Assembly (NCBI RefSeq): GCF_057098645.1
Contig: NZ_CM169472.1
Strand: one strand, 5' to 3'
Length of the DNA stretch: 64,000 bases
The translations under genes were made by a program, and so were the position numbers. Under the pieces are notes generated by a model. It saw only the letters and a list, made by a program, of their open reading frames with translations, searched no databases and was not told the origin of the DNA. Below are positions 12,466-54,212 of this stretch, one piece after another (the first letter of the stretch is position 1; each line of letters opens with the position of its first letter).

Positions 12466-12538
12466 GTCCGGCGTTTCCTGCCGGATGCGGCGCGAGCGCC
12501 TTATCCGGCCTACAAAGGGCGCAAACGTCGCGCCCTTA
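12466..12538. repeat. REP (repetitive extragenic palindrome) element
   Basis: gcctgccggatgcggcgcgagcgccttatccggcctacaa followed by a gggcgc...gcgccc palindrome in the osmF-bglX intergenic region. Confidence 0.7.
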
Positions 12539-29365: not shown

Positions 29366-29560
29366 CGCATCCGGCATTTGGTTCCTGTCGCCGGATGCGG
29401 CTTGAACGCCTTATCCGGCCTACAAAACCATACAAATCAGTATGTTGAGCTCATTGTAGGCCGGATAAAACGCGCCAGCGTTGCATCCGGCATTTGGCTC
29501 CTGTCGCCGGATGCGGCGTGAACGCCTTATCCGGCCTACAAAACCACACAGATCATGATG
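29366..29560. repeat. BIME: cluster of 3-4 REP elements in alternating orientation
   Basis: Repeated gccggatgcggc(g/t)tgaacgccttatccggcctacaaaacc units and an inverted copy, between the convergent preA and mglC. Confidence 0.8.
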
Positions 29561-42571: not shown

Positions 42572-43621
42572 ATGACGAATATCACCTTACAGAAACAACA
42601 TCGTACACTGTGGCATTTTATTCCGGGGTTAGCCCTGAGTGCAGTTATCACCGGGGTCGCCCTGTGGGGTGGTTCCATTCCCGCGGTTGCGGGTGCCGGG
42701 TTTAGTGCCCTCACCCTCGCAATCTTGTTGGGGATGGTTTTAGGCAACACCATCTATCCGCACATCTGGAAAAGCTGTGACGGTGGTGTGCTGTTTGCCA
42801 AGCAATATTTATTACGTCTGGGTATCATTCTTTATGGCTTCCGTCTGACGTTCTCGCAAATTGCCGATGTCGGTATCAGTGGGATCATCATTGACGTGTT
42901 GACGCTGTCCAGTACCTTCCTGCTGGCTTGCTTCCTGGGGCAGAAAGTGTTTGGTCTGGATAAGCACACCAGCTGGTTGATCGGTGCCGGTAGCAGTATC
43001 TGTGGTGCTGCCGCGGTACTGGCGACTGAGCCGGTAGTGAAAGCGGAAGCCAGTAAAGTAACCGTGGCTGTTGCAACCGTTGTTATCTTCGGGACCGTCG
43101 CGATTTTCCTCTACCCGGCGATATATCCGCTGATGTCTCAATGGTTTAGTCCGGAAACTTTCGGTATCTACATTGGTTCTACTGTGCACGAAGTGGCGCA
43201 GGTGGTGGCGGCAGGTCATGCCATCAGCCCAGATGCGGAAAACGCAGCAGTTATTTCCAAAATGCTGCGCGTGATGATGCTGGCTCCGTTCCTCATCCTG
43301 CTGGCGGCGCGTGTTAAACAGCTGTCTGGGGCGAACAGCGGCGAGAAAAGCAAAATCACTATTCCGTGGTTTGCCATCTTGTTCATCGTAGTTGCCATCT
43401 TTAACTCGTTCCACCTGTTACCGCAGAGCGTGGTGAACATGCTGGTAACGCTGGATACCTTCCTGCTGGCAATGGCGATGGCGGCGCTGGGTCTGACCAC
43501 TCACGTCAGCGCGCTGAAAAAAGCCGGGGCGAAACCTCTGCTGATGGCACTGGTACTGTTTGCCTGGCTGATTGTTGGTGGTGGTGCGATTAACTATGTG
43601 ATTCAAAGCGTCATCGCATAA
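42572..43621 (+). CDS. yeiH: UPF0324-family inner membrane protein
   Basis: 349-aa polytopic membrane protein, divergent from its probable regulator yeiE. Confidence 0.85.
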
Positions 43622-43694
43622 ACCACTACATCTTGCTCCTGTTAACCCGCTATCATTACCGTTTTCCTCCAGCGGGTTTAACAGGAGTCCTCGC

Positions 43695-44552
43695 ATGAAA
43701 TACATTGGAGCGCACGTTAGTGCTGCTGGCGGTCTGGCAAATGCCGCAATTCGCGCCGCCGAAATCGACGCAACCGCGTTTGCCTTGTTCACCAAAAACC
43801 AACGTCAGTGGCGTGCCGCACCGCTCACGACGCAAACCATCGATGAATTCAAAGCCGCCTGTGAAAAATATCACTACACATCGGCGCAAATTCTTCCCCA
43901 CGACAGCTATCTGATTAACCTCGGACATCCGGTCACTGAAGCTCTGGAAAAATCGCGCGATGCCTTTATAGATGAAATGCAGCGTTGCGAACAGCTGGGG
44001 CTTTCTTTGCTCAACTTCCACCCTGGCAGCCATCTGATGCAGATTTCAGAAGAGGATTGCCTTGCGCGTATTGCCGAATCCATCAACATTGCGCTGGATA
44101 AAACTCAAGGTGTGACCGCGGTGATTGAAAACACCGCCGGTCAGGGCAGTAACTTAGGGTTTAAATTCGAACATCTCGCGGCGATTATCGACGGCGTGGA
44201 AGATAAATCCCGTGTCGGCGTCTGCATTGATACCTGCCATGCTTTCGCTGCCGGGTATGATTTGCGTACTCCAGCCGAATGCGAGAAAACGTTCGCTGAT
44301 TTTGCCCGTATTGTCGGCTTTAAGTATCTGCGCGGGATGCACCTTAACGATGCGAAAAGCACCTTTGGCAGCCGCGTTGACCGCCATCATAGCCTCGGTG
44401 AAGGCAATATCGGTCATGATGCGTTCCGCTGGATCATGCAGGACGACCGTTTCGACGGCATTCCGCTGATCCTCGAAACCATCAACCCGGATATCTGGGC
44501 AGAAGAGATCGCCTGGCTGAAAGCGCAACAAACTGAAAAAGCGGTAGCCTGA
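43695..44552 (+). CDS. nfo: Endonuclease IV (AP endonuclease)
   Basis: 285-aa translation [39 protein letters not shown]... recognised as Nfo. Confidence 0.92.
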
Positions 44553-44554
44553 AG

Positions 44555-45643
44555 ATGAATAACCGGGAAAAGGAGATCCTTGCAATTTTACGGCGTAACC
44601 CGCTGATTCAGCAGAACGAAATTGCGGACATGCTGCAAATCAGCCGTTCGCGCGTTGCGGCGCATATTATGGATTTAATGCGCAAAGGCCGGATTAAAGG
44701 CAAAGGTTACATTCTCACCGAGCAGGAATACTGCGTAGTGGTGGGGGCAATCAATATGGATATTCGCGGGATGGCGGATATCCGTTACCCGCAATCGGCT
44801 TCTCATCCCGGTACAATTCATTGCTCAGCGGGCGGCGTGGGACGCAACATCGCCCACAATCTGGCGCTGTTAGGCCGCGACGTCCATTTGCTTTCAGTGA
44901 TTGGCGATGACTTTTATGGCGAAATGCTCCTGGAAGAAACGCGCCGCGCCGGCGTGAATGTCTCCGGCTGCGTTCGTTTACATGCTCAAAGCACATCGAC
45001 GTATCTGGCAATTGCCAATCGAGACGATGAAACCGTGCTGGCGATTAACGATACCCATCTGCTGGAACAGTTATCGCCGCAATTATTGAACGGGTCGCGC
45101 GATTTACTTCGTCATGCGGGCGTGGTACTGGCTGATTGCAACCTGACAGCCGAGGCGCTGGAATGGGTCTTTACCCTCGCTGATGAGATCCCGGTGTTTG
45201 TCGATACCGTTTCAGAATTCAAAGCGGGCAAAATCAAACACTGGCTGGCGCATATTCACACCCTGAAACCCACTTTACCGGAGCTGGAAATTTTATGGGG
45301 ACAGGCGATCACCAGCGATGCTGACCGTAATGCTGCAGTGAATGCGTTGCATCAGCAAGGTGTTCAGCAACTGTTTGTTTATTTGCCCGATGAGTCAGTT
45401 TATTGCAGCGAAAAGGATGGAGAACAATTTTTGCTGACCGCACCAGCGCATACGACAGTAGACAGTTTTGGTGCTGACGATGGTTTTATGGCGGGCCTGG
45501 TATATAGCTTTCTGGAAGGAAACAATTTCCGTGACAGCGCCCGTTTTGCGATGGCCTGCGCGGCAATTTCACGCGCCAGCGGCAGCTTAAACAACCCTAC
45601 CTTGTCTGCCGATAACGCGCTGTCATTAGTGCCAATGGTGTAA
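44555..45643 (+). CDS. yeiI: PfkB-family sugar/nucleoside kinase with N-terminal HTH domain
   Basis: 362 aa with N-terminal winged-helix region followed by a ribokinase-like fold. Paralogous to psuK. Confidence 0.85.
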   Translation: MNNREKEILAILRRNPLIQQNEIADMLQISRSRVAAHIMDLMRKGRIKGKGYILTEQEYCVVVGAINMDIRGMADIRYPQSASHPGTIHCSAGGVGRNIAHNLALLGRDVHLLSVIGDDFYGEMLLEETRRAGVNVSGCVRLHAQSTSTYLAIANRDDETVLAINDTHLLEQLSPQLLNGSRDLLRHAGVVLADCNLTAEALEWVFTLADEIPVFVDTVSEFKAGKIKHWLAHIHTLKPTLPELEILWGQAITSDADRNAAVNALHQQGVQQLFVYLPDESVYCSEKDGEQFLLTAPAHTTVDSFGADDGFMAGLVYSFLEGNNFRDSARFAMACAAISRASGSLNNPTLSADNALSLVPMV

Positions 45644-45648
45644 CAATG

Positions 45649-45686
45649 TTGCCGGATTCGACGCTTGACCGCATATTATCCGGCTC
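45649..45686. terminator. Hairpin between convergent yeiI and nupX
   Basis: Stem gccggat/atccggc with an acgctt-containing loop. Homologous to the hairpin 3' of psuT. Confidence 0.45.
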
Positions 45687-45698
45687 ATAAATCGCACA

Positions 45699-46949
45699 CT
45701 ACGCTAAACCAATAAAGAACCCGGCAATGGTGGCACTCATCAGGTTAGAAAGTGTCGCCGCCGCCAGCGCGCGTAAACCAAGCTGGGCGATTTCCGGCGC
45801 ACGGTGTGGCGCAACCGCAGAAAACGCCCCCACCACCACCCCGATAGAACCAAAGTTAGCGAAACCGCACAACGCGAAGGAAATAATCGCCACGGTTTTA
45901 GCATCCAGAGTGCCAGCCGTTTGCAGATAGGGTGAGAAATTGAGATAAGCGACAAATTCATTTATTGCCAGTTTCTGTCCAATCAAACTCCCGGCAAGAT
46001 TCGCATCACTCCAGTCAACACCCATCACCCACGCCAGTGGAGCCAACAGGTAACCTAAAATGGACTCCAGCGAGGCATGTTCAAAACCAAACCAGCCGCC
46101 AACGCCGCCGATAATACCGTTAATTAACGCAATGATGGCGACAAATGCCATCACCACTGTCGCCACACCTGCGGCGATTTTCAGCCCGGTCATTGCCCCT
46201 GTCGCAGCGGCTTCAATAATGCTTTTTGGCGGTGTTTCGGTGAAAGAGAGGTTATTAAAAGAAACCTGCGAAGATTCCGTAGCCGGGCTTAACAGGCGGG
46301 CAAACAAGATTCCGCCTGGGATCGCCATTAACGATGCCGCCAGCAAATATTCCACAGGTACGCCCAGTGCGGCGTAACCAATCATTGTCGAACCAGCAAT
46401 CGAGGCCATGCCACTACAAATCGCTGTAAATAATTCATTGCGATTCAGCCGATCGATAAAGGGTTTGACGATTGCCGGAATTTCGTTTTGCCCGAGGAAA
46501 ATGGTAGTGACCGCGACGAATGACTCGATCTTGCTGATATTTAATGCTTTCTGGAATATACCGCCGAGAATGCGAATTAAGATCCCCATCACACCGATGT
46601 AATAGAGAATACTCACCAGCGCGGTGACGAAGATAATTGCCGGTAACACTCTGAAACCAAAGATAAATCCTGCGCCATCAAACAGCGTGTCCATTTTCGG
46701 CCCGACCAGCGAACCGAAGATAAATGCGCTACCTGCATCGCTGTACGCCATCACTTTATGCACGCCAAAAGCGACTTTTTCAGCGACCCAACGCCCTGGC
46801 GGTAACCAAAGCATAATCCCGCCAATCACAACCTGTAACACTAACGCCGCGCCAACGGTACGCAGGCTGATCTTCTTCTTGTTTACTGACAGTAAAAACG
46901 CAATCGTCAGCAATACCACCATTCCCAGAACACTTCTCATGACATCCAT
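45699..46949 (-). CDS. nupX: Concentrative nucleoside transporter (CNT family)
   Basis: 416-aa polytopic transporter, highly similar to psuT in this window. Confidence 0.9.
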   Translation of the reverse strand: MDVMRSVLGMVVLLTIAFLLSVNKKKISLRTVGAALVLQVVIGGIMLWLPPGRWVAEKVAFGVHKVMAYSDAGSAFIFGSLVGPKMDTLFDGAGFIFGFRVLPAIIFVTALVSILYYIGVMGILIRILGGIFQKALNISKIESFVAVTTIFLGQNEIPAIVKPFIDRLNRNELFTAICSGMASIAGSTMIGYAALGVPVEYLLAASLMAIPGGILFARLLSPATESSQVSFNNLSFTETPPKSIIEAAATGAMTGLKIAAGVATVVMAFVAIIALINGIIGGVGGWFGFEHASLESILGYLLAPLAWVMGVDWSDANLAGSLIGQKLAINEFVAYLNFSPYLQTAGTLDAKTVAIISFALCGFANFGSIGVVVGAFSAVAPHRAPEIAQLGLRALAAATLSNLMSATIAGFFIGLA

Positions 46950-47048
46950 AGTTATTATCTCTTCATGTCATATTGGGCGACGGCTTTCTGCCCCTCAGAA
47001 ATAGCCGGGCCTGCATCTTGCGATACTGACCCGGCTTGTTATCAACAC

Positions 47049-47990
47049 TTAATGGGTTTTGATGTAGCCGCGCACGCACTCTTCGACTAAGCCCCAGAAC
47101 CAGTCGGTATCAATAGTGATGCCGACTTTGGTATTAGCGGGCTTGCCAAGAACGCCCAGCTCGTCGCAGACGGTACGCCCATAGCAAGGGCCACTGTTGA
47201 CGTCCACTTCGACGTACATCTCCTGGGTTTTAATGCGATCAGGGTTAATCAGATAACCGATGCAGGTGGCGTCGTGCACCGGGCCGCCAGCCAGGCCGTA
47301 GTTTTCGAACTGGGTTTTGAGAGTGAAGTTCATGATGTCGCTGAACAGCTCTCCGGCAGGGCCGCCTGCCCTTTCCATTCGTGCAATCACGTCCGGGGTG
47401 CAAACGGTCTGGTTGGTGAGATCGAGGCCCATCATCACTAATGGAACGCCAGAGGTGAACACCACGCGTGCGGCTTCCGGGTCAGCAAAGATGTTGAACT
47501 CGGCAGATGGCGTGAAGTTGCCTGTACCGTAAGCGCCGCCCATTAGCACAATTTCACGGATTTTGGGCAGGATCGCGGGTTGCATACGCATTGCCACCGC
47601 GATATTTGAAAGCGGACCAACCGGCACCAGAGTGATATCGCCATCGCTTGCCATCAGGGTATCAATGATGTATTTCACCGCATGAGTGCTTTCTGCCTGG
47701 CGGGTCAGCGGCTCGAATACCGGGCCATCCAGTCCGGTTTCACCGTGAATATTATCGGCAACGATTTGTTGACGCATAATGGGCTGCGGCATCCCCGCAT
47801 AAACCGGAACATTAATCTCCAGTTTCTGGCAAACATTCAGGCCATTAATTAATGTTTTATCAAGCGTCTGATTACCCGCTACAATAGTGATGCCTAATAA
47901 ATCTATTGCCGGATGTTTCGCTGCCATCATCATTGCAATAGCATCATCATGACCCGGATCACAATCCAGAATAATTTTTCTCTTTTCCAT
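47049..47990 (-). CDS. rihB: Pyrimidine-specific ribonucleoside hydrolase
   Basis: N-terminal nucleoside hydrolase signature DCDPGHDDA. 313 aa. Confidence 0.9.
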
Positions 47991-48158
47991 TGTTTATTTC
48001 CTCTGTTTCCAGTTGCGTTATTTTTTCTACAGCAAAGAAATTTCGATCGGGCGGATGATTGAATCTTAACAACAGCGTACGTATGCTAAATATGAGAAAT
48101 CTCATAGCGGATAAACATCGTGAAAGAAATCCACAATAATGATCTTAAGCAGCAATTG

Positions 48159-48818
48159 ATGAGTGAATCCGCGTTTAAGGATTGCTTTTTAACGGATGTT
48201 TCAGCCGATACGCGGCTGTTTCATTTTTTAGCGCGTGACTACATTGTGCAGGAAGGGCAACAGCCGTCCTGGCTGTATTACCTGACGCGAGGCCGCGCCA
48301 GGCTTTACGCCACGCTAGCTAATGGTCGCGTGTCGCTGATCGATTTCTTTGCTGCCCCCTGTTTTATTGGCGAGATTGAGTTAATCGATAAAGACCATGA
48401 ACCGCGTGCAGTACAGGCGATTGAAGAGTGTTGGTGCCTTGCGCTCCCTATGAAACATTACCGTCCGCTGTTATTAAACGACACCCTATTTTTACGAAAA
48501 CTTTGCGTCACCTTAAGTCATAAAAATTATCGTAATATTGTTTCTTTAACTCAGAATCAATCATTTCCGTTAGTGAATCGCCTGGCAGCATTTATATTAC
48601 TCTCACAAGAAGGTGATCTTTATCACGAAAAGCATACGCAAGCGGCAGAGTATTTAGGCGTTTCTTATCGACATCTTTTATATGTTCTCGCGCAATTCAT
48701 TCACGACGGTTTATTAATTAAAAGCAAGAAAGGATATCTCATTAAAAACAGAAAGCAGTTGTCAGGGTTGGCGCTGGAGATGGACCCGGAGAATAAATTC
48801 TCCGGGATGATGCAGTAA
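48159..48818 (+). CDS. yeiL: CRP/FNR-family transcriptional regulator
   Basis: cNMP-binding-like N-terminus and C-terminal HTH. Start ambiguous: GTG at 48120 (ORF track) or ATG at 48159. Confidence 0.75.
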
Positions 48819-48837
48819 AAATTATTTGCAATAGCGC

Positions 48838-48881
48838 GATTGCCGGATGCAACGCTTAATAAGCGAGTACATCCGGCAATG
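48838..48881. terminator. Hairpin between convergent yeiL and psuT
   Basis: Perfect 10-bp stem ttgccggatg/catccggcaa. Homologous to the hairpin 3' of nupX. Confidence 0.45.
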
Positions 48882-48885
48882 AAAC

Positions 48886-50136
48886 TCAAGCTAAACCAAT
48901 AAAGAACCCGGCAATGGTCGCGCTCATCAGGTTGGAAAGCGTTGCTGCTGCCAGCGCCCGTAAACCAAGCTGGGCGATTTCCGGAGCACGTTTTGGCGAA
49001 ATAGCCGAAAATGCCCCAACGACAACACCGATAGAACCAAAGTTAGCAAAACCACAAAGCGCAAAGGAGATAATCGCAATGGTTTTCACTTCCAGCGTGC
49101 CGCCCGTTTGCAGGTATGGGGAGAAACTCAGGTAAGCGACGAATTCGTTAATCGCCAGTTTCTGCCCAATCAGGCTACCCGCAAGGTTGGCATCACTCCA
49201 GTCCACACCCATGATCCACGCCAGCGGTGCCAGCACATAGCCAAAAATACTTTCCAGAGAGGCATTGGCAAAACCAAACCAGCCGCCAATTCCGCCAATA
49301 ATGCCATTAATCAGCGCAATAATTGCGACAAACGCCATGACCACCGTCGCCACACCGGCGGCGATTTTCAACCCGGTCATCGCACCGCTCGCCGCCGCTT
49401 CGATAAAGCTTTTTGGCGGCGTTTCGCTGAACGACAGATTTTCAAACGTGACCTGCGAAGGCTCGGTTGCCGGACTAAGAATACGTGCAAACAAAATACC
49501 GCCGGGGATCGCCATCAGCGATGCCGCCAACAGGTAGTCAATTGGTACGCCCATTCCGGCATAACCAATCATCATCGAACCCGCAATGGACGCCATCCCG
49601 CTACAAATAGCCGTAAACAACTCGTTGCGATTCATGCGATCGATAAACGGTTTAACGATCGCCGGGATCTCATTTTGCCCGAGGAAAATAGTGGTAACCG
49701 CAACAAAAGATTCGATTTTGCTGATGTTGAGGGCTTTCTGGAAAATGCTGCCAAGGATGCGAATCAGCAGCCCCATCACGCCAATGTAGTACAGCAGACT
49801 AATGAGCGCAGTGACGAAGATAATCGCCGGGAGTACGCGAAAGGCGAAGATAAAGCCTGCGCCATCAAACAGGACATCCATTTTCGGCCCGACCAATGAA
49901 CCAAAAATAAAGGCACTGCCGGCGTCACTGTAAGACATCACTTTATGAACGCCTAATGCCGCCTGTTCTACTGCCCATTTTCCCGGCGGAAAATAGAGCA
50001 TGATGCCACCAATAGCGATTTGCAGCAGCAGTGCGGCTCCAACCGTGCGCAAACTGATGCTCTTTTTATTTACCGACAACAGAAATGCTATTGCCAGTAA
50101 CACCACCATCCCCACAACACTTCTCATTATATCCAT
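48886..50136 (-). CDS. psuT: Putative pseudouridine/nucleoside transporter (CNT family)
   Basis: 416 aa, paralogue of nupX. First gene downstream of psuG/psuK on the same strand. Confidence 0.88.
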   Translation of the reverse strand: MDIMRSVVGMVVLLAIAFLLSVNKKSISLRTVGAALLLQIAIGGIMLYFPPGKWAVEQAALGVHKVMSYSDAGSAFIFGSLVGPKMDVLFDGAGFIFAFRVLPAIIFVTALISLLYYIGVMGLLIRILGSIFQKALNISKIESFVAVTTIFLGQNEIPAIVKPFIDRMNRNELFTAICSGMASIAGSMMIGYAGMGVPIDYLLAASLMAIPGGILFARILSPATEPSQVTFENLSFSETPPKSFIEAAASGAMTGLKIAAGVATVVMAFVAIIALINGIIGGIGGWFGFANASLESIFGYVLAPLAWIMGVDWSDANLAGSLIGQKLAINEFVAYLSFSPYLQTGGTLEVKTIAIISFALCGFANFGSIGVVVGAFSAISPKRAPEIAQLGLRALAAATLSNLMSATIAGFFIGLA

Positions 50137-50229
50137 AATGATTTTCCCTTCATGCCAGTAAACCCGGCGTCAGCGCCAGGTTTCGGTATGTATGATCAGT
50201 ACGGGCGACGGCTTTCTGCCCGTCAGAAA

Positions 50230-51168
50230 TTAACCCGCGAGACGCTGATATTCTTTGGCAATTTCGCTCGCCAGAATGGCGTTGTTGAACACCAGCTGGA
50301 TGTTGGATTTCAGGCTGTCACCGCCGGTCAGCTCAGCAACGCGCGCCAGCAGGAATGGCGTACTTTCTTTACCAATAACACCCTGCGCTTCAGCTTCAGC
50401 TACCGCCTGATCGATCGCCGCATTGATAGTGTGTTCCGGCATAGCAAACTGTTGCGGGATCGGGTTCGCTACCACGAGGCCACCGTTCAGCCCGCTTTGC
50501 CATTTCACCGCCATTGCACGGGCAATTTCGCTGGCGCTGTCGAGACGAATGCTGACGTCAAACGGGCTGGTGCGGCAGAAAAACGCAGGCAGCGCTTTAG
50601 TCTGATAGCCAATTAACGGCACACCGAAGGTTTCTAAATACTCAGTGGTTAATCCTAAATCGAGAATAGATTTCGCCCCGGCACAAACAACGGTGACATT
50701 AGTATTTGCCAGTTCTTGCAAATCGGCAGAAATATCGAAGGTATGTTCCGCCCCGCGATGCACACCACCAATTCCCCCGGTGGCAAATACTTTAATTCCG
50801 GCAAGCGCCGCAATAATCATCGTTGAAGCCACAGTGGTTGCGCCATTTTTTCCGGCGGCAACAACAAAAGGTAAATCGCGACGACTAACTTTGGTCACGT
50901 TATGCCCTTCACGACCCAGTAATTCAATTTCTTCTTTGCTTAAACCCACTTTCATCACGCCGCCAATAATGGCGATAGTGGCAGGTACTGCGCCCTGTTT
51001 ACGAATAGTTTCTTCTACTTCAATTGCGGTCTGGGCATTTTGTGGGAACGGCATCCCGTGAGAAATAATGGTCGATTCCAGCGCCACAACCGGTTTTTTG
51101 TTTTTTAAAGCGTCCTGCACTTCCGGGGAAATTTGTAATAATTCAGGGGAAATTTTTAATTCAGACAT
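50230..51168 (-). CDS. psuG: Pseudouridine-5'-phosphate glycosidase
   Basis: 312-aa translation MSELKISPELLQISPEVQDALKNKKPVVALESTIISHGMP... recognised as the IndA/PsuG family. Confidence 0.9.
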   Translation of the reverse strand: MSELKISPELLQISPEVQDALKNKKPVVALESTIISHGMPFPQNAQTAIEVEETIRKQGAVPATIAIIGGVMKVGLSKEEIELLGREGHNVTKVSRRDLPFVVAAGKNGATTVASTMIIAALAGIKVFATGGIGGVHRGAEHTFDISADLQELANTNVTVVCAGAKSILDLGLTTEYLETFGVPLIGYQTKALPAFFCRTSPFDVSIRLDSASEIARAMAVKWQSGLNGGLVVANPIPQQFAMPEHTINAAIDQAVAEAEAQGVIGKESTPFLLARVAELTGGDSLKSNIQLVFNNAILASEIAKEYQRLAG

Positions 51169-52097
51169 TCTGCGTTCTCCACTAACGATATAACGTTGGC
51201 AATCGATAAATCGGGGTTATTGGTGTATTCACAGGAGAGCGCCATTGACGAACATCCCTGTGCGAAACGAACAGATTCGGCAAACGGCATTCCGTCTACC
51301 CAACACGAAGCAAGTCCCGCCATCATGGCATCGCCCGCTCCGGTAACATTAATAACATTGGTTTTGATCGAGCCAGACCAGCCACTTTCACCGCTGATTT
51401 CACTGTAATAAACGCCATCGCCGCCCATGCTCAATACCAGTCGGTTCAGGCCATGTTGATGGAACCAGGCAGCAACTTTTGCCACATCTTCACGCCCTGA
51501 CAGCGCAATCCCACTCAGGGTTTCCGCTTCAAGGCGGTTTGGCTTCAGAGTGTGGATCTGATTTAGACGGTCGCGCACTTTGACACATTTCCACGCTGAA
51601 ACCGGATCGACAAATACGGGTACGTTGGCAGCATTATCCAGAATCCATGCCAGTGCCTCTTCACTGATATTACAGTCCGCGACAATGACCTTTGCCCTCT
51701 GAATAAATTCACGGTGCTGTGCGAGATATTCAGCTGTAATAGCGTTGCTAATATTCATGTCATTTATAGCAACCAGCATTTCACCGGTATTATCGAGTAA
51801 TGATAAATAGCTCGACGTATTTTCTCCCGGCACAATCAGGCATTTATCGACATAAACGCCAGATTGATTGGTTTGCGTTAGCAGCGATTGTCCATAAAAA
51901 TCACTGCCTACGGCGCTCAGTAGCCAGGCTTTATTACCCAGCAACGCCAGGTTTTGTGCAATATTGCGCCCTACCCCACCAGGCGTAAATTTTATTTTAC
52001 CTGGATTTGAATCCGCATAATTTAATGATTCATGTGAATATCCGGCGACATCAATATTCGCCGAGCCTATAATTACGACATAATCCTTTTCGCGCAT
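51156..52097 (-). CDS. psuK: Pseudouridine kinase (PfkB family)
   Basis: Ribokinase-like fold with C-terminal GAGDA motif. Overlaps the psuG start. Confidence 0.9.
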   Translation of the reverse strand: MREKDYVVIIGSANIDVAGYSHESLNYADSNPGKIKFTPGGVGRNIAQNLALLGNKAWLLSAVGSDFYGQSLLTQTNQSGVYVDKCLIVPGENTSSYLSLLDNTGEMLVAINDMNISNAITAEYLAQHREFIQRAKVIVADCNISEEALAWILDNAANVPVFVDPVSAWKCVKVRDRLNQIHTLKPNRLEAETLSGIALSGREDVAKVAAWFHQHGLNRLVLSMGGDGVYYSEISGESGWSGSIKTNVINVTGAGDAMMAGLASCWVDGMPFAESVRFAQGCSSMALSCEYTNNPDLSIANVISLVENAECLN

Positions 52098-52336
52098 AGC
52101 ACGTCCTCTGGTAAAAAATTACCAACCCTGTCAATCCACAAGAATATAGATACTGCAAAGACGGTTTAAACATGTGTTCATATTTAAACATGTGCTCATA
52201 GTATGCATGTTTTACGTAAAGTAAATTGCCGCCAGAGAGGCAAAGCGGGCAGATTTGAGCAGGCTCACAAAATGCGATTAAATGCCTGAATTACAAAAGC
52301 GAGGAATTTGTGACGGGATGCACAGAACATGAACAC

Positions 52337-52363
52337 TAAAAAAGGGCAGAAAAGAATCTGCCC
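52337..52363 (-). terminator. Rho-independent terminator downstream of fruA
   Basis: Stem gggcaga/tctgccc with a 6-A run on the + strand (T-run on the minus transcript). A second hairpin lies at 52483..52507. Confidence 0.5.
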
Positions 52364-52520
52364 TTGAGGAAATAACCTTAGTGTTTGATGAACGTTTCAG
52401 GTTTCTACTGAAAGATAAAACCATTTAAATTCATAAAATTACATTCACAAACCGGTCATTCTCTTTGCGCTCATCCAATGATACAGGGCAGTAAATTTCT
52501 GCCCTGTAACACACCTTTTA

Positions 52521-54212
52521 TTACGCGGCTTTCACTACTGCGTCCACTTCCGGACGTTTCAGGAAGGCATAGGCCAAACCCGCCACCAGCGTACCGGCAA
52601 TAATTGCTACCAGGTAACCCAGTACCGGCGTAATAGCGCCAGGGATCAGCAGAACAAACAGACCACCGTGCGGTGCCATCAGTTTCGCACCAATCGCCAT
52701 TGAGATTGCGCCAGTCAGCGCCCCACCAACGATACAACACGGCAGCACACGCATCGGATCACGAGCAGCAAACGGAATTGCACCTTCCGAAATAAAGCAC
52801 AGACCAAGAACCAGAGCGGCTTTGCCACCTTCCTGCTGCGCTTTGTCGAATTTGCGACGCGCCACCATTGTTGCCAGACCCATTGCCAGCGGTGGCACCA
52901 TACCTGCCGCCATAATCGCCGCCATCGGGCCATAGGTTTGAGTACTCAGCAGACCCACACCGAATGCGTACGCTGCTTTATTTACCGGACCGCCCATGTC
53001 AGTACACATCATGCCACCGAGGATCGCCCCCAGCAGAACCGCATTCGCAGTCCCCATGGTCTGCAGCCAGTGAGTCAACCCTTCGAGAATGCCAGCAACC
53101 GGTTTACCGATCAGGTAGATCATCGCCAGACCGACCACCAGACTGGAAATTAGCGGAATGATCAGGATCGGTTTCAGCGCCTCCATACTCTGTGGCAGTT
53201 TCAGTTGCGTACTGATTAACTTCGCAATGTAACCAGCCAGGAAGCCCGCAATAATACCGCCAATGAAGCCAGAACCGGTGCTGACCGCCAGCATACCGCC
53301 AATCAGACCCGGCGTGAGACCCGGACGATCGGCAATGGAGAAGGCAATGTAACCTGCCAGTACCGGCACCATCAGCGCAAAGGCTGAACCACCACCAATC
53401 TGCATCAGCGCCGCTGCCAACGTACCCGGCTCTTTAAACGCTTCGATACCAAAAGCAAAAGAAAGCGCGATACACAGACCACCTGCTACGACCATCGGCA
53501 GCATGTAAGAGACGCCCGTCAGCAAGTGACGGTATGCGCCTGCACTCTCTTTCTTACCTTCAGAGGTCGCCGTTTGAGCTTTGCCCGCCGGTTCATACGG
53601 CGTTGCTTCAGCAACCGCTTTATCCAGTTCCTGCGCGGTTTTCTTCAGCGCCAGACCGGTAGAGGTACGATACATCGGTTTACCAGCAAATTTCGCCAGA
53701 TCCACTTCGATATCTGCCGCCACAATCACCAGATCCGCTGCGGCTACTTCTTCGGGGGTGATTGCATTACCCGCACCAACAGAACCACGGGTTTCAACTT
53801 TCACCCACCAGCCACGTTTTTTCGCTTCGGTTTCAATGGCTTCAGCCGCCATAAAGGTGTGTGCTACGCCAGTCGGGCAAGCAGTCACCGCAACTACGCG
53901 TTTCGGACCGCTGGCGGCAACCGGTGCTGTCGCAGCGACCGGCGCAGTGTAAGGTTTCGCATGGCCTTTGGCTTCACTCAGGAACAGCTCAGGGTGCGCA
54001 ACTGCCCGGGAAATATCGCCCAGCCAGACATTTTTACCGTTCAGCGCGCTGTCATTCGGGATGGAATCACCGAGAACAATCGCCATTTCTGCGTCGTTCG
54101 GATTGTCGATGATTTCCAGTTTTGCTTTTCGCGCCGCCGCGCCCAGCAGGGTCTTCGCCATATAGGCGCGTGCCTGACCGAGATTAGCGTCAATAATCAG
54201 CAGCGTTTTCAT
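52521..54212 (-). CDS. fruA: PTS fructose-specific EIIB'BC component
   Basis: 563 aa with N-terminal IIB-like domains and C-terminal polytopic IIC domain. Confidence 0.92.
   Translation of the reverse strand: MKTLLIIDANLGQARAYMAKTLLGAAARKAKLEIIDNPNDAEMAIVLGDSIPNDSALNGKNVWLGDISRAVAHPELFLSEAKGHAKPYTAPVAATAPVAASGPKRVVAVTACPTGVAHTFMAAEAIETEAKKRGWWVKVETRGSVGAGNAITPEEVAAADLVIVAADIEVDLAKFAGKPMYRTSTGLALKKTAQELDKAVAEATPYEPAGKAQTATSEGKKESAGAYRHLLTGVSYMLPMVVAGGLCIALSFAFGIEAFKEPGTLAAALMQIGGGSAFALMVPVLAGYIAFSIADRPGLTPGLIGGMLAVSTGSGFIGGIIAGFLAGYIAKLISTQLKLPQSMEALKPILIIPLISSLVVGLAMIYLIGKPVAGILEGLTHWLQTMGTANAVLLGAILGGMMCTDMGGPVNKAAYAFGVGLLSTQTYGPMAAIMAAGMVPPLAMGLATMVARRKFDKAQQEGGKAALVLGLCFISEGAIPFAARDPMRVLPCCIVGGALTGAISMAIGAKLMAPHGGLFVLLIPGAITPVLGYLVAIIAGTLVAGLAYAFLKRPEVDAVVKAA

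Follow-up and report, generated by a model that had tools for sequence, protein, structure and literature searches.

The stretch considered here is a 7,543-nt interval (positions 44555–52097) that runs from yeiI to psuK and contains genes of nucleoside uptake and breakdown; it belongs to a window of 64 kb, the term being used here for the whole stretch of DNA that was analyzed. The interval is 100% identical to the source strain, Escherichia coli O145:H28 RM12761, and was found in 5,425 of the 5,426 complete E. coli genomes. Open reading frames (ORFs), family models, and the K-12 RefSeq annotation all concur on its gene content, and they bear out the gene positions and strands given in an earlier note made from the sequence alone. 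That note viewed the interval as two duplicated modules, each consisting of a PfkB-type kinase and a nucleoside transporter (yeiI with nupX, and psuK with psuG and psuT), with homologous hairpins 3' of the two transporter genes. Its coordinates and features are real, but the duplicated-module reading is mostly wrong for the RM12761 sequence.

The yeiI gene (44555–45643, forward strand) is an ORF whose product scores 809 bits with NCBIfam PRK09954 and contains the Pfam domains HTH_24 (residues 1–48) and PfkB (residues 58–348). It converges on nupX (45699–46949), which is carried by the opposite, reverse strand and encodes a 416-aa nucleoside transporter of the CNT family. Directly upstream on the same strand, so that nupX follows its 3' end, is rihB (47049–47990), the gene of a pyrimidine-specific ribonucleoside hydrolase (NCBIfam PRK09955, 726 bits), and rihB is adjoined in divergent orientation by yeiL (48120–48818, forward strand), which encodes a CRP/FNR-family regulator (NCBIfam PRK10402, 418.6 bits; Pfam cNMP_binding and HTH_Crp_2). 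Both rihB and yeiL were absent from the earlier note and are central to the nature of the region. The other genes are again located on the reverse strand and include psuK (51156–52097), encoding a pseudouridine kinase of the PfkB type with its hallmark residues present (NCBIfam PRK09850, 709 bits), psuG (50230–51168), encoding a pseudouridine-5'-phosphate glycosidase (Pfam Indigoidine_A, 440 bits; RefSeq annotation), and psuT (48886–50136), the third gene of psuK-psuG-psuT, encoding the other 416-aa transporter of the CNT family. Membership of this family is indicated by TIGR00804 scores of 499.5 bits (NupX) and 517.6 bits (PsuT), which exceed the cut-off of 442, and by the Pfam domains Nucleos_tra2_N, Gate, and Nucleos_tra2_C in NupX.

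As such, the region is the already known yeiI-nupX-rihB-yeiL-psuTGK arrangement of E. coli plus two repetitive extragenic palindromic (REP) elements. The psuK-psuG-psuT operon of K-12 (yeiC-yeiN-yeiM) is alike in genes, order, and annotation, and the operon itself shows no difference; the K-12 genes rihB (yeiK), nupX (yeiJ), and that of YeiL are the same genes as those found here.

Two salvage units and their gene order

Gene order was compared at 15 enterobacterial loci outside E. coli, among the matches listed, and a species absent from that list carries no information. All but one of these loci are situated between fruA and nfo. The psuK-psuG-psuT genes with a convergent yeiI stand alone in E. 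albertii, three Citrobacter, a Leclercia (locus L005), and Klebsiella michiganensis. The yeiL gene with rihB-nupX stands alone, with no yeiI, in Leclercia (L091), L093, and Buttiauxella (L095) and, at other or undetermined sites, in Klebsiella spallanzanii and Superficieibacter (L011, L099). Entomohabitans and Kluyvera carry both sets in the order of E. coli; L096 carries both in the reverse order, where yeiI adjoins psuT rather than nupX. Finally, psuK-psuG-psuT of Klebsiella sp. BIGb0407 (L010, site undetermined) has no separate yeiI within 10 kb, and its kinase is fused to a winged helix-turn-helix domain.

Throughout these loci, yeiI is always found with psuKGT and never with a lone yeiL/rihB-nupX, and rihB is linked to a NupX-type transporter and yeiL in eight of them (L011, L091, L093, and L095–L099). 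One actual unit consists of psuKGT and yeiI and the other of yeiL and rihB-nupX; a locus may have either of them or both, and where both are present their order varies. That yeiI lies beside nupX in E. coli, which had been taken as a kinase-plus-transporter module, is a consequence of the rihB-nupX unit sitting between psuT and yeiI. Such modules are contradicted by the convergence of yeiI on nupX, by its travelling with psuKGT, and by the unequal divergence of the kinases (38% identical) and the transporters (88% identical). A tandem module duplication is likewise not indicated, the genes yeiI and nupX being neither co-oriented nor co-inherited.

The species labels of two loci call for caution. 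L096 (GCA_046366295.1) is labelled Enterobacter hormaechei, and both of its transporters are 97–99% identical in amino acids to those of Leclercia. The label of L093 (GCA_005727875.1), Salmonella enterica, may be doubtful in view of the corresponding region of Salmonella. One or both of these assemblies may be mislabelled.

Overall, the interval probably represents two different nucleoside-salvage units placed side by side between fruA and nfo. In the first unit, psuK-psuG-psuT would take up pseudouridine, phosphorylate it, and cleave the C-glycoside, and yeiI would be its long-standing convergent companion. The second unit, lying between psuT and yeiI, would combine the regulator gene yeiL with the divergently oriented rihB and nupX, which encode the pyrimidine nucleosidase and the uridine/cytidine transporter. 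From the arrangement of these genes, YeiL may act as their regulator, and rihB and nupX may be transcribed together. The two units may have been joined by insertion, by recombination in a REP or in the 3' end of a transporter gene, or they may have resided together ancestrally and then been separated by losses.

RihB is a cytidine/uridine hydrolase, which fits the substrates of NupX. In a nupC mutant, NupX carries uridine and cytidine with modest efficiency (PMC11241209, 2024), and the former remark that the substrate of a yeiI-nupX module is not established does not hold for this transporter; it does hold for YeiI, which is uncharacterized in the literature (PMC9061257). For PsuT, uptake of uridine, cytidine, and xanthosine was not detected (PMC11241209), and its putative transport of pseudouridine is deduced from the operon context and on the improved titres obtained upon psuT deletion in engineering work. 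What is added here to the psuKGT operon as known is that yeiI is its constant neighbor across genera. For the known set of rihB, nupX, and YeiL, it is added that the three genes stay together in the eight loci of other taxa and that rihB is separated from nupX by a strong hairpin.

Divergence of nupX and psuT

The earlier claim that the two transporters are paralogs of 416 aa each is well founded, as 367 of the 416 residues of NupX and PsuT are identical (88%) in a gap-free alignment. They had also been described as near-identical over long stretches, which is true of the proteins, with identical runs of 37, 34, 32, 28, and 25 aa, but not of the DNA. The genes are in register 3187 nt apart and share 78.7% of their nucleotides, with identities of 88%, 95%, and 52.5% at the first, second, and third codon positions, and their longest exact match is 29 nt (codon-shuffle P = 0.24). 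The numbers of non-synonymous (dN) and synonymous (dS) substitutions per site are 0.076 and 1.40, respectively, giving a dN/dS of 0.054. For comparison, dS of psuT between E. coli and Citrobacter is 1.10, no larger than that between nupX and psuT, and the third-position identity of nupX with its own psuT (~53%) is inside the range of 45–60% spanned by all between-genus pairs. The DNA-level alignment of the two genes, which the earlier note had recommended, yielded no significant identity tract, and within the coding sequence it came close to the uniformly diverged synonymous sites that the same note had named as speaking against its reading.

In agreement with these values, the paralogs do not cluster by genome in the transporter tree. 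E. coli PsuT shares 98% of its amino acids with the E. albertii ortholog and 95% with that of Citrobacter, and in the neighbor-joining tree the PsuT of E. coli and E. albertii join at 100% bootstrap with E. coli NupX outside. By their sequences, nupX and psuT are old true paralogs with saturated synonymous sites. As part of the two-unit explanation and with the same good confidence, the likeness of the two proteins is attributed to strong purifying selection and not to recent duplication or ongoing homogenization.

Paralogous genes of bacteria can undergo concerted evolution by gene conversion, as is the case for tufA and tufB of Salmonella. It had been proposed that nupX and psuT are likewise kept similar by conversion, a view that finds no support for the pair in the window, given the dS of 1.40, the absence of a significant tract (P = 0.24 for the 29-nt run), and the grouping of PsuT with its orthologs at 100% bootstrap; the same three results speak against concerted evolution. 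A genuine tract was detected elsewhere in the genus, in the draft genome of strain SCPM-O-B-8794 (L004), where the 3' part of nupX contains a run of 137 nt and a further 27 nt identical to the psuT of the same strain. The tract covers 19 consecutive diagnostic sites, strain-specific variants included (P < 0.0005). Because its core genes are ~93–95% identical to those of E. coli, this strain probably belongs to a cryptic Escherichia clade. The converted allele was sought in the 5,426 complete E. coli genomes and was not found, the best match being 89.7%, and the tract therefore stands on one draft assembly. Ectopic conversion between nupX and psuT thus takes place in the genus Escherichia at their 3' ends, but only rarely, and the likeness of the two genes is not maintained by it. 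The pair resembles tufA/tufB in that tract exchange between paralogs of the same genome is possible, as seen for the 137 + 27 nt in one Escherichia lineage, but it differs from the tuf copies, which are kept almost identical, in its dS of 1.4, in the lack of grouping by genome, and in the lack of a tract in RM12761.

Two other candidates for conversion were considered. A nupX-like run at 963–1023 in the psuT of strains MS145 and AVS0226 was rejected, since it is common to E. albertii and hence belongs to an inherited allele class. An apparent swap of the stop codon and spacer between K-12 nupX and the psuT of the window (26/28) was downgraded because a similar foot (GTTTCCTGCCGGATG) also occurs in an unrelated REP, that at 12480, and the two REPs part after ~10 nt.

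Hairpins and leaders flanking the transporter genes

REPs of E. coli are imperfect hairpins of 35–40 nt with a 5' GTAG and occur in high copy number (PMC3479197). They are also called palindromic units and are associated with a tyrosine transposase (TnpA-REP). The two GCCGGAT...ATCCGGC hairpins reported in the earlier note at 45649..45686 and 48838..48881 do exist, as confirmed by pattern matches and folds. Both are imperfect palindromes of 34–42 nt that share the core GCCGGATG...CATCCGGC, and the pattern places them at 45651–45684 and 48842–48877. The folded stem of the former, a REP between the convergent yeiI and nupX, spans 45651–45684 (–17.1 kcal/mol, z –1.4), and that of the latter, a REP-derived symmetric palindrome between the convergent yeiL and psuT, spans 48839–48880 (–28.1 kcal/mol, z –5.2); neither is assigned to a strand. 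In the 64-kb window, GCCGGAT-N(8-30)-ATCCGGC has 6 matches at four separate sites, compared with 0.00 expected. The remaining four matches are canonical REPs, a single one at 12480–12509 and three within 29390–29535. The latter three form a cluster with alternating orientation, known as a bacterial interspersed mosaic element (BIME).

The hairpins had been held to be specifically homologous to each other, which is not the case: they match at 31/39 positions, no closer than their matches with the unrelated REPs at 12480, 29390, 29460, and 29506 (29–31/38–40), and the REP at 29460 repeats the left half of the psuT hairpin without change. Taken as alignments to canonical copies, the matches with these four REPs amount to 27–31 of 35–40 positions. 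They are REP elements as far as their sequences tell, i.e., copies of a genome-wide repeat of E. coli. Since their likeness is that of a shared repeat family, with only a family-level match, it provides no evidence of duplication past the stop codons. The flanks in Kluyvera, Entomohabitans, Klebsiella, and Leclercia contain unrelated, lineage-specific hairpins, and Kluyvera and Entomohabitans share the E. coli gene order, which further contradicts a duplication running into the 3' hairpins.

Both hairpins are wholly extragenic and lie between convergent stop codons, in spacers of 55 nt (yeiI/nupX) and 67 nt (yeiL/psuT). The nupX-side REP begins 14 nt past the nupX stop and 7 nt past the yeiI stop, and its GTAG foot is degenerate (TGAG). 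The psuT-side palindrome is symmetric and head-to-head, begins 5 nt past the psuT stop, and has GTAG on neither side, unlike the alleles of K-12, O157, and others, in which GTAG is present at this site; the canonical REP of K-12 is located 15 nt past the stop (L001, 7016–7085). The symmetric palindrome could have arisen from a deletion within an inverted REP pair or from template switching. Its allele was found in 2950/5426 E. coli genomes (~54%) by BLAST of the 44-nt hairpin, which passes only near-full-length copies and so gives an allele frequency, not a REP copy number. The yeiI-nupX spacer is also variable; in K-12 it measures 106 nt and holds a pair of inverted REPs (L001, 3790–3895), and in RM12761 it measures 55 nt and holds one REP (45644–45698). 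A third form of this spacer is present in strain SCPM-O-B-8794. In being extragenic, situated between convergent genes, recurrent in the window, and variable among strains in copy number and form, the hairpins resemble the REP and BIME elements of E. coli; the TGAG foot of the nupX copy and the symmetric, GTAG-free psuT copy of RM12761, which is canonical in K-12, distinguish them from the canonical REP.

No repeat features are listed in the K-12 RefSeq annotation of the region. An Rfam scan of 43500–53000 at E <= 1 returned three chance-level matches, none of them at the hairpins or leaders, and a promoter and terminator scan of the 3' ends revealed nothing exceeding the shuffled expectation. 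The REPs between the convergent gene pairs most likely act as shared 3' stabilizers or transcription barriers. A REP within ~15 nt of a stop codon has been reported to reduce translation.

On the 5' side, the two transporter genes do share more than the coding sequence. A direct repeat of 28 nt precedes nupX (46975–47002) and psuT (50203–50230, abutting the psuG stop) on the reverse strand, and its two copies are identical at 27/28 positions, far above the synonymous sites. The proposal that the duplication extends beyond the coding sequence is thus correct for the 5' side, through a leader that had not been seen, and not supported for the 3' side, where the REPs are located. The element forms a 6-bp stem (ACGGGC/GCCCGT) with an 11-nt loop (AGNNNGCSGTC). 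In a set of 22 sequences representing nine or more named genera, the cells in the stem pair in 94.7% of cases, compared with 34–54% in slid controls, the inner four pairs being partly imposed by the extraction pattern and the two outer pairs not. Double changes occur at three of the six pairs, as do G-U (wobble) pairs, which favor an RNA over a DNA operator. A covariance model of the element scores 36.4 bits (E = 5e-6) before nupX and 42.5 bits (E = 1e-7) before psuT and has no other match in the window; no additional copy came up when the model was run over 1.5 Mb of loci that carry more distantly related CNT homologs. The element has no Rfam match and is limited to the NupX/PsuT subfamily of Enterobacteriaceae.

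Each leader contains an additional predicted hairpin on the reverse strand. Upstream of nupX, a strong intercistronic hairpin at 47003–47036, followed by AUUUCU, separates rihB from nupX, and the region 46950–47048 that includes it folds with –34 kcal/mol (z –3.5). In psuT-type leaders, a second hairpin is found at 50151–50190 by folding and leader alignments. The nupX leader of E. coli lacks it, and the 41-nt register shift between the two leaders is due to its presence in the psuT type only. Either hairpin could be an attenuator or a processing site within its operon.

YeiI, allelic variation, and the origin of the arrangement

The kinases YeiI and PsuK belong to each other's closest kinase families, to which extent they are paralogs as had been stated, but they are only 38% identical, which does not fit a recent module duplication. 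The hallmarks of pseudouridine kinases (PUKI) are Ser30, Asn143, and Lys170 for the nucleobase, Asn14 and Asp16 for the ribose, and the catalytic Asp256 (PMC9061257). The PsuK of the window carries every residue shown to bind pseudouridine. YeiI combines an N-terminal winged helix, a DNA-binding domain, with a PfkB domain, and it keeps the full set of PsuK residues known to contact pseudouridine or to serve in catalysis, namely Asn14, Asp16, Ser30, Tyr97, Asn112, Asn143, Lys170, Lys185, and Asp256. The six hallmark residues are conserved in seven YeiI orthologs. All seven have also replaced Met114 by Thr (M114T) and carry GADD in place of GAGD (G255D in PsuK numbering). YeiI accordingly possesses the hallmark residues of PUKI but not the canonical anion-hole motif GAGD of PfkB kinases, and owing to its GADD motif it is called here a putative PUKI-like paralog and is not filed as a pseudouridine kinase. 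In Klebsiella sp. BIGb0407 (L010, 7817–8935), a winged-helix-fused kinase with PsuK-type residues occupies the psuK position.

YeiI may sense or phosphorylate pseudouridine or a close analogue and regulate the psu unit. A more specific proposal, which is put forward only tentatively, is that the leader stem-loop would be an undescribed cis-regulatory RNA and that YeiI, instead of being a second kinase, would regulate the psu unit as a sensor of pseudouridine. The regulatory role of YeiI is suggested by its winged-helix domain, its pseudouridine-kinase-like pocket, and its altered GADD motif.

Within E. coli, yeiI and psuK each fall into two allele classes whose DNA differs by ~20%, and hardly any alleles lie in between. 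The minority class comprises 2,061 of 5,423 records for yeiI (~38%) and 1,202 of 5,413 for psuK (~22%) and is 91–92% identical to E. albertii, and the majority class is 91–93% identical to the SCPM lineage. The classes were seen in L002 and L087–L089, and the same strains carry a 10%-divergent class of psuT and psuG. This dimorphism may be an old shared polymorphism or the result of introgression. The nupX gene is also variable in its presence, being a remnant or missing in ~18% of records, as judged from psuT being the best nupX match in ~995 of 5,432 E. coli records, which makes it dispensable in a sizeable minority of strains; 28 records have a nupX match of intermediate identity. In strain AVS0226 (L002, 2692–2757), for instance, an internal deletion has cut nupX to a short remnant, and in strain CUPS04 (L090, 3001–4803) a deletion from within yeiI into psuK removes nupX, rihB, yeiL, psuT, and psuG.

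Several observations weigh against the explanation by two separate units with long-diverged transporters. The third-position identity of nupX and psuT creeps up toward the 3' end (41, 49, 56, 51, 56, and 64% in six bins) and there reaches ~2 standard errors above the baseline, and an old, eroded conversion may be compatible with this weak rise. The rihB-linked and psuG-linked transporters are not split with support in the protein tree (bootstraps of 21–60%), and the age and number of the duplication or exchange events are therefore not fixed. The REP after E. coli nupX has almost the same sequence as that after E. albertii psuT, and the canonical REPs after nupX and after K-12 psuT share their orientation and their start, exactly 15 nt beyond the stop codon. 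These findings would fit a recombination event within the 3' end or the REP that brought the two units together.

Among other explanations of the locus, it is rather doubtful that these Enterobacteriaceae descend from an ancestor with the composite arrangement, with the single-unit loci produced by repeated loss, partly through recombination between nupX and psuT that left the surviving transporters chimeric. The same composite order in E. coli, Kluyvera, and Entomohabitans agrees with such a history, and the psuT of E. albertii is nupX-like at seven consecutive diagnostic sites (963–1023) and has a nupX-type 3' flank; chimeric genes would also explain why the backbone of the transporter tree lacks support. 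However, the loci with only rihB-nupX are also without yeiI, which a crossover of nupX by psuT would leave in place, the reverse order is present in L096, and the Leclercia strains with either unit alone fit the swapping of whole units via recombination in the core genes fruA and nfo.

Slightly less probable, and unlikely on present evidence, is a shared descent of the two REPs, in which yeiL/rihB-nupX joined the psu unit by homologous recombination in the transporter 3' end or the REP and thereby left the ancestral psuT REP on each side. The nupX-yeiI spacer of E. coli differs only slightly from that between psuT and yeiI in E. albertii, the REPs after nupX of most strains and after psuT of K-12, E. 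albertii, and C. youngae are all located 15 nt past the stop in one orientation, and the last ~110 nt of the transporter genes, conserved in all relatives, would provide a substrate for recombination. By hand count, however, the K-12 psuT REP is closer to the unrelated REP at 29460 than to the nupX REP, and the 15-nt spacer matches an unrelated REP foot about equally (9/15 versus 10/15). Moreover, REPs are lacking from the identically ordered loci of Kluyvera and Entomohabitans, whose flanks are dissimilar, and the REP content of these sites differs between E. coli strains.

The reading of the earlier note, in which tandem duplication copied a kinase-plus-transporter module together with its 3' hairpin and conversion keeps the transporters and flanks alike, is very improbable and already largely refuted, for although the two transporters, spaced 3187 nt apart in register, are paralogs, the kinases belong to each other's closest families, similar palindromes lie 3' of both transporter genes, and a genuine conversion tract exists in SCPM-O-B-8794, the kinase pair is far more diverged than the transporter pair (38% versus 88% identical), yeiI is convergent to nupX and tied to psuKGT across genomes, dS is 1.40 with no significant tract in RM12761, the transporter paralogs do not cluster by genome, and the hairpins are generic REPs.

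With the two-unit explanation preferred, the finding as first described amounts to an annotated region with two REPs, and little changes in the understanding of the locus itself. The yeiI gene is to be studied with the pseudouridine operon and not with nupX, and nupX belongs with rihB and yeiL, its substrates having already been measured. The likeness of the REP hairpins should not count as evidence for a duplication that reaches the flanking DNA. For the regulation of pseudouridine and pyrimidine-nucleoside salvage, the swappable locus between fruA and nfo, the leader hairpin, and the 20%-divergent alleles of yeiI and psuK offer starting points.

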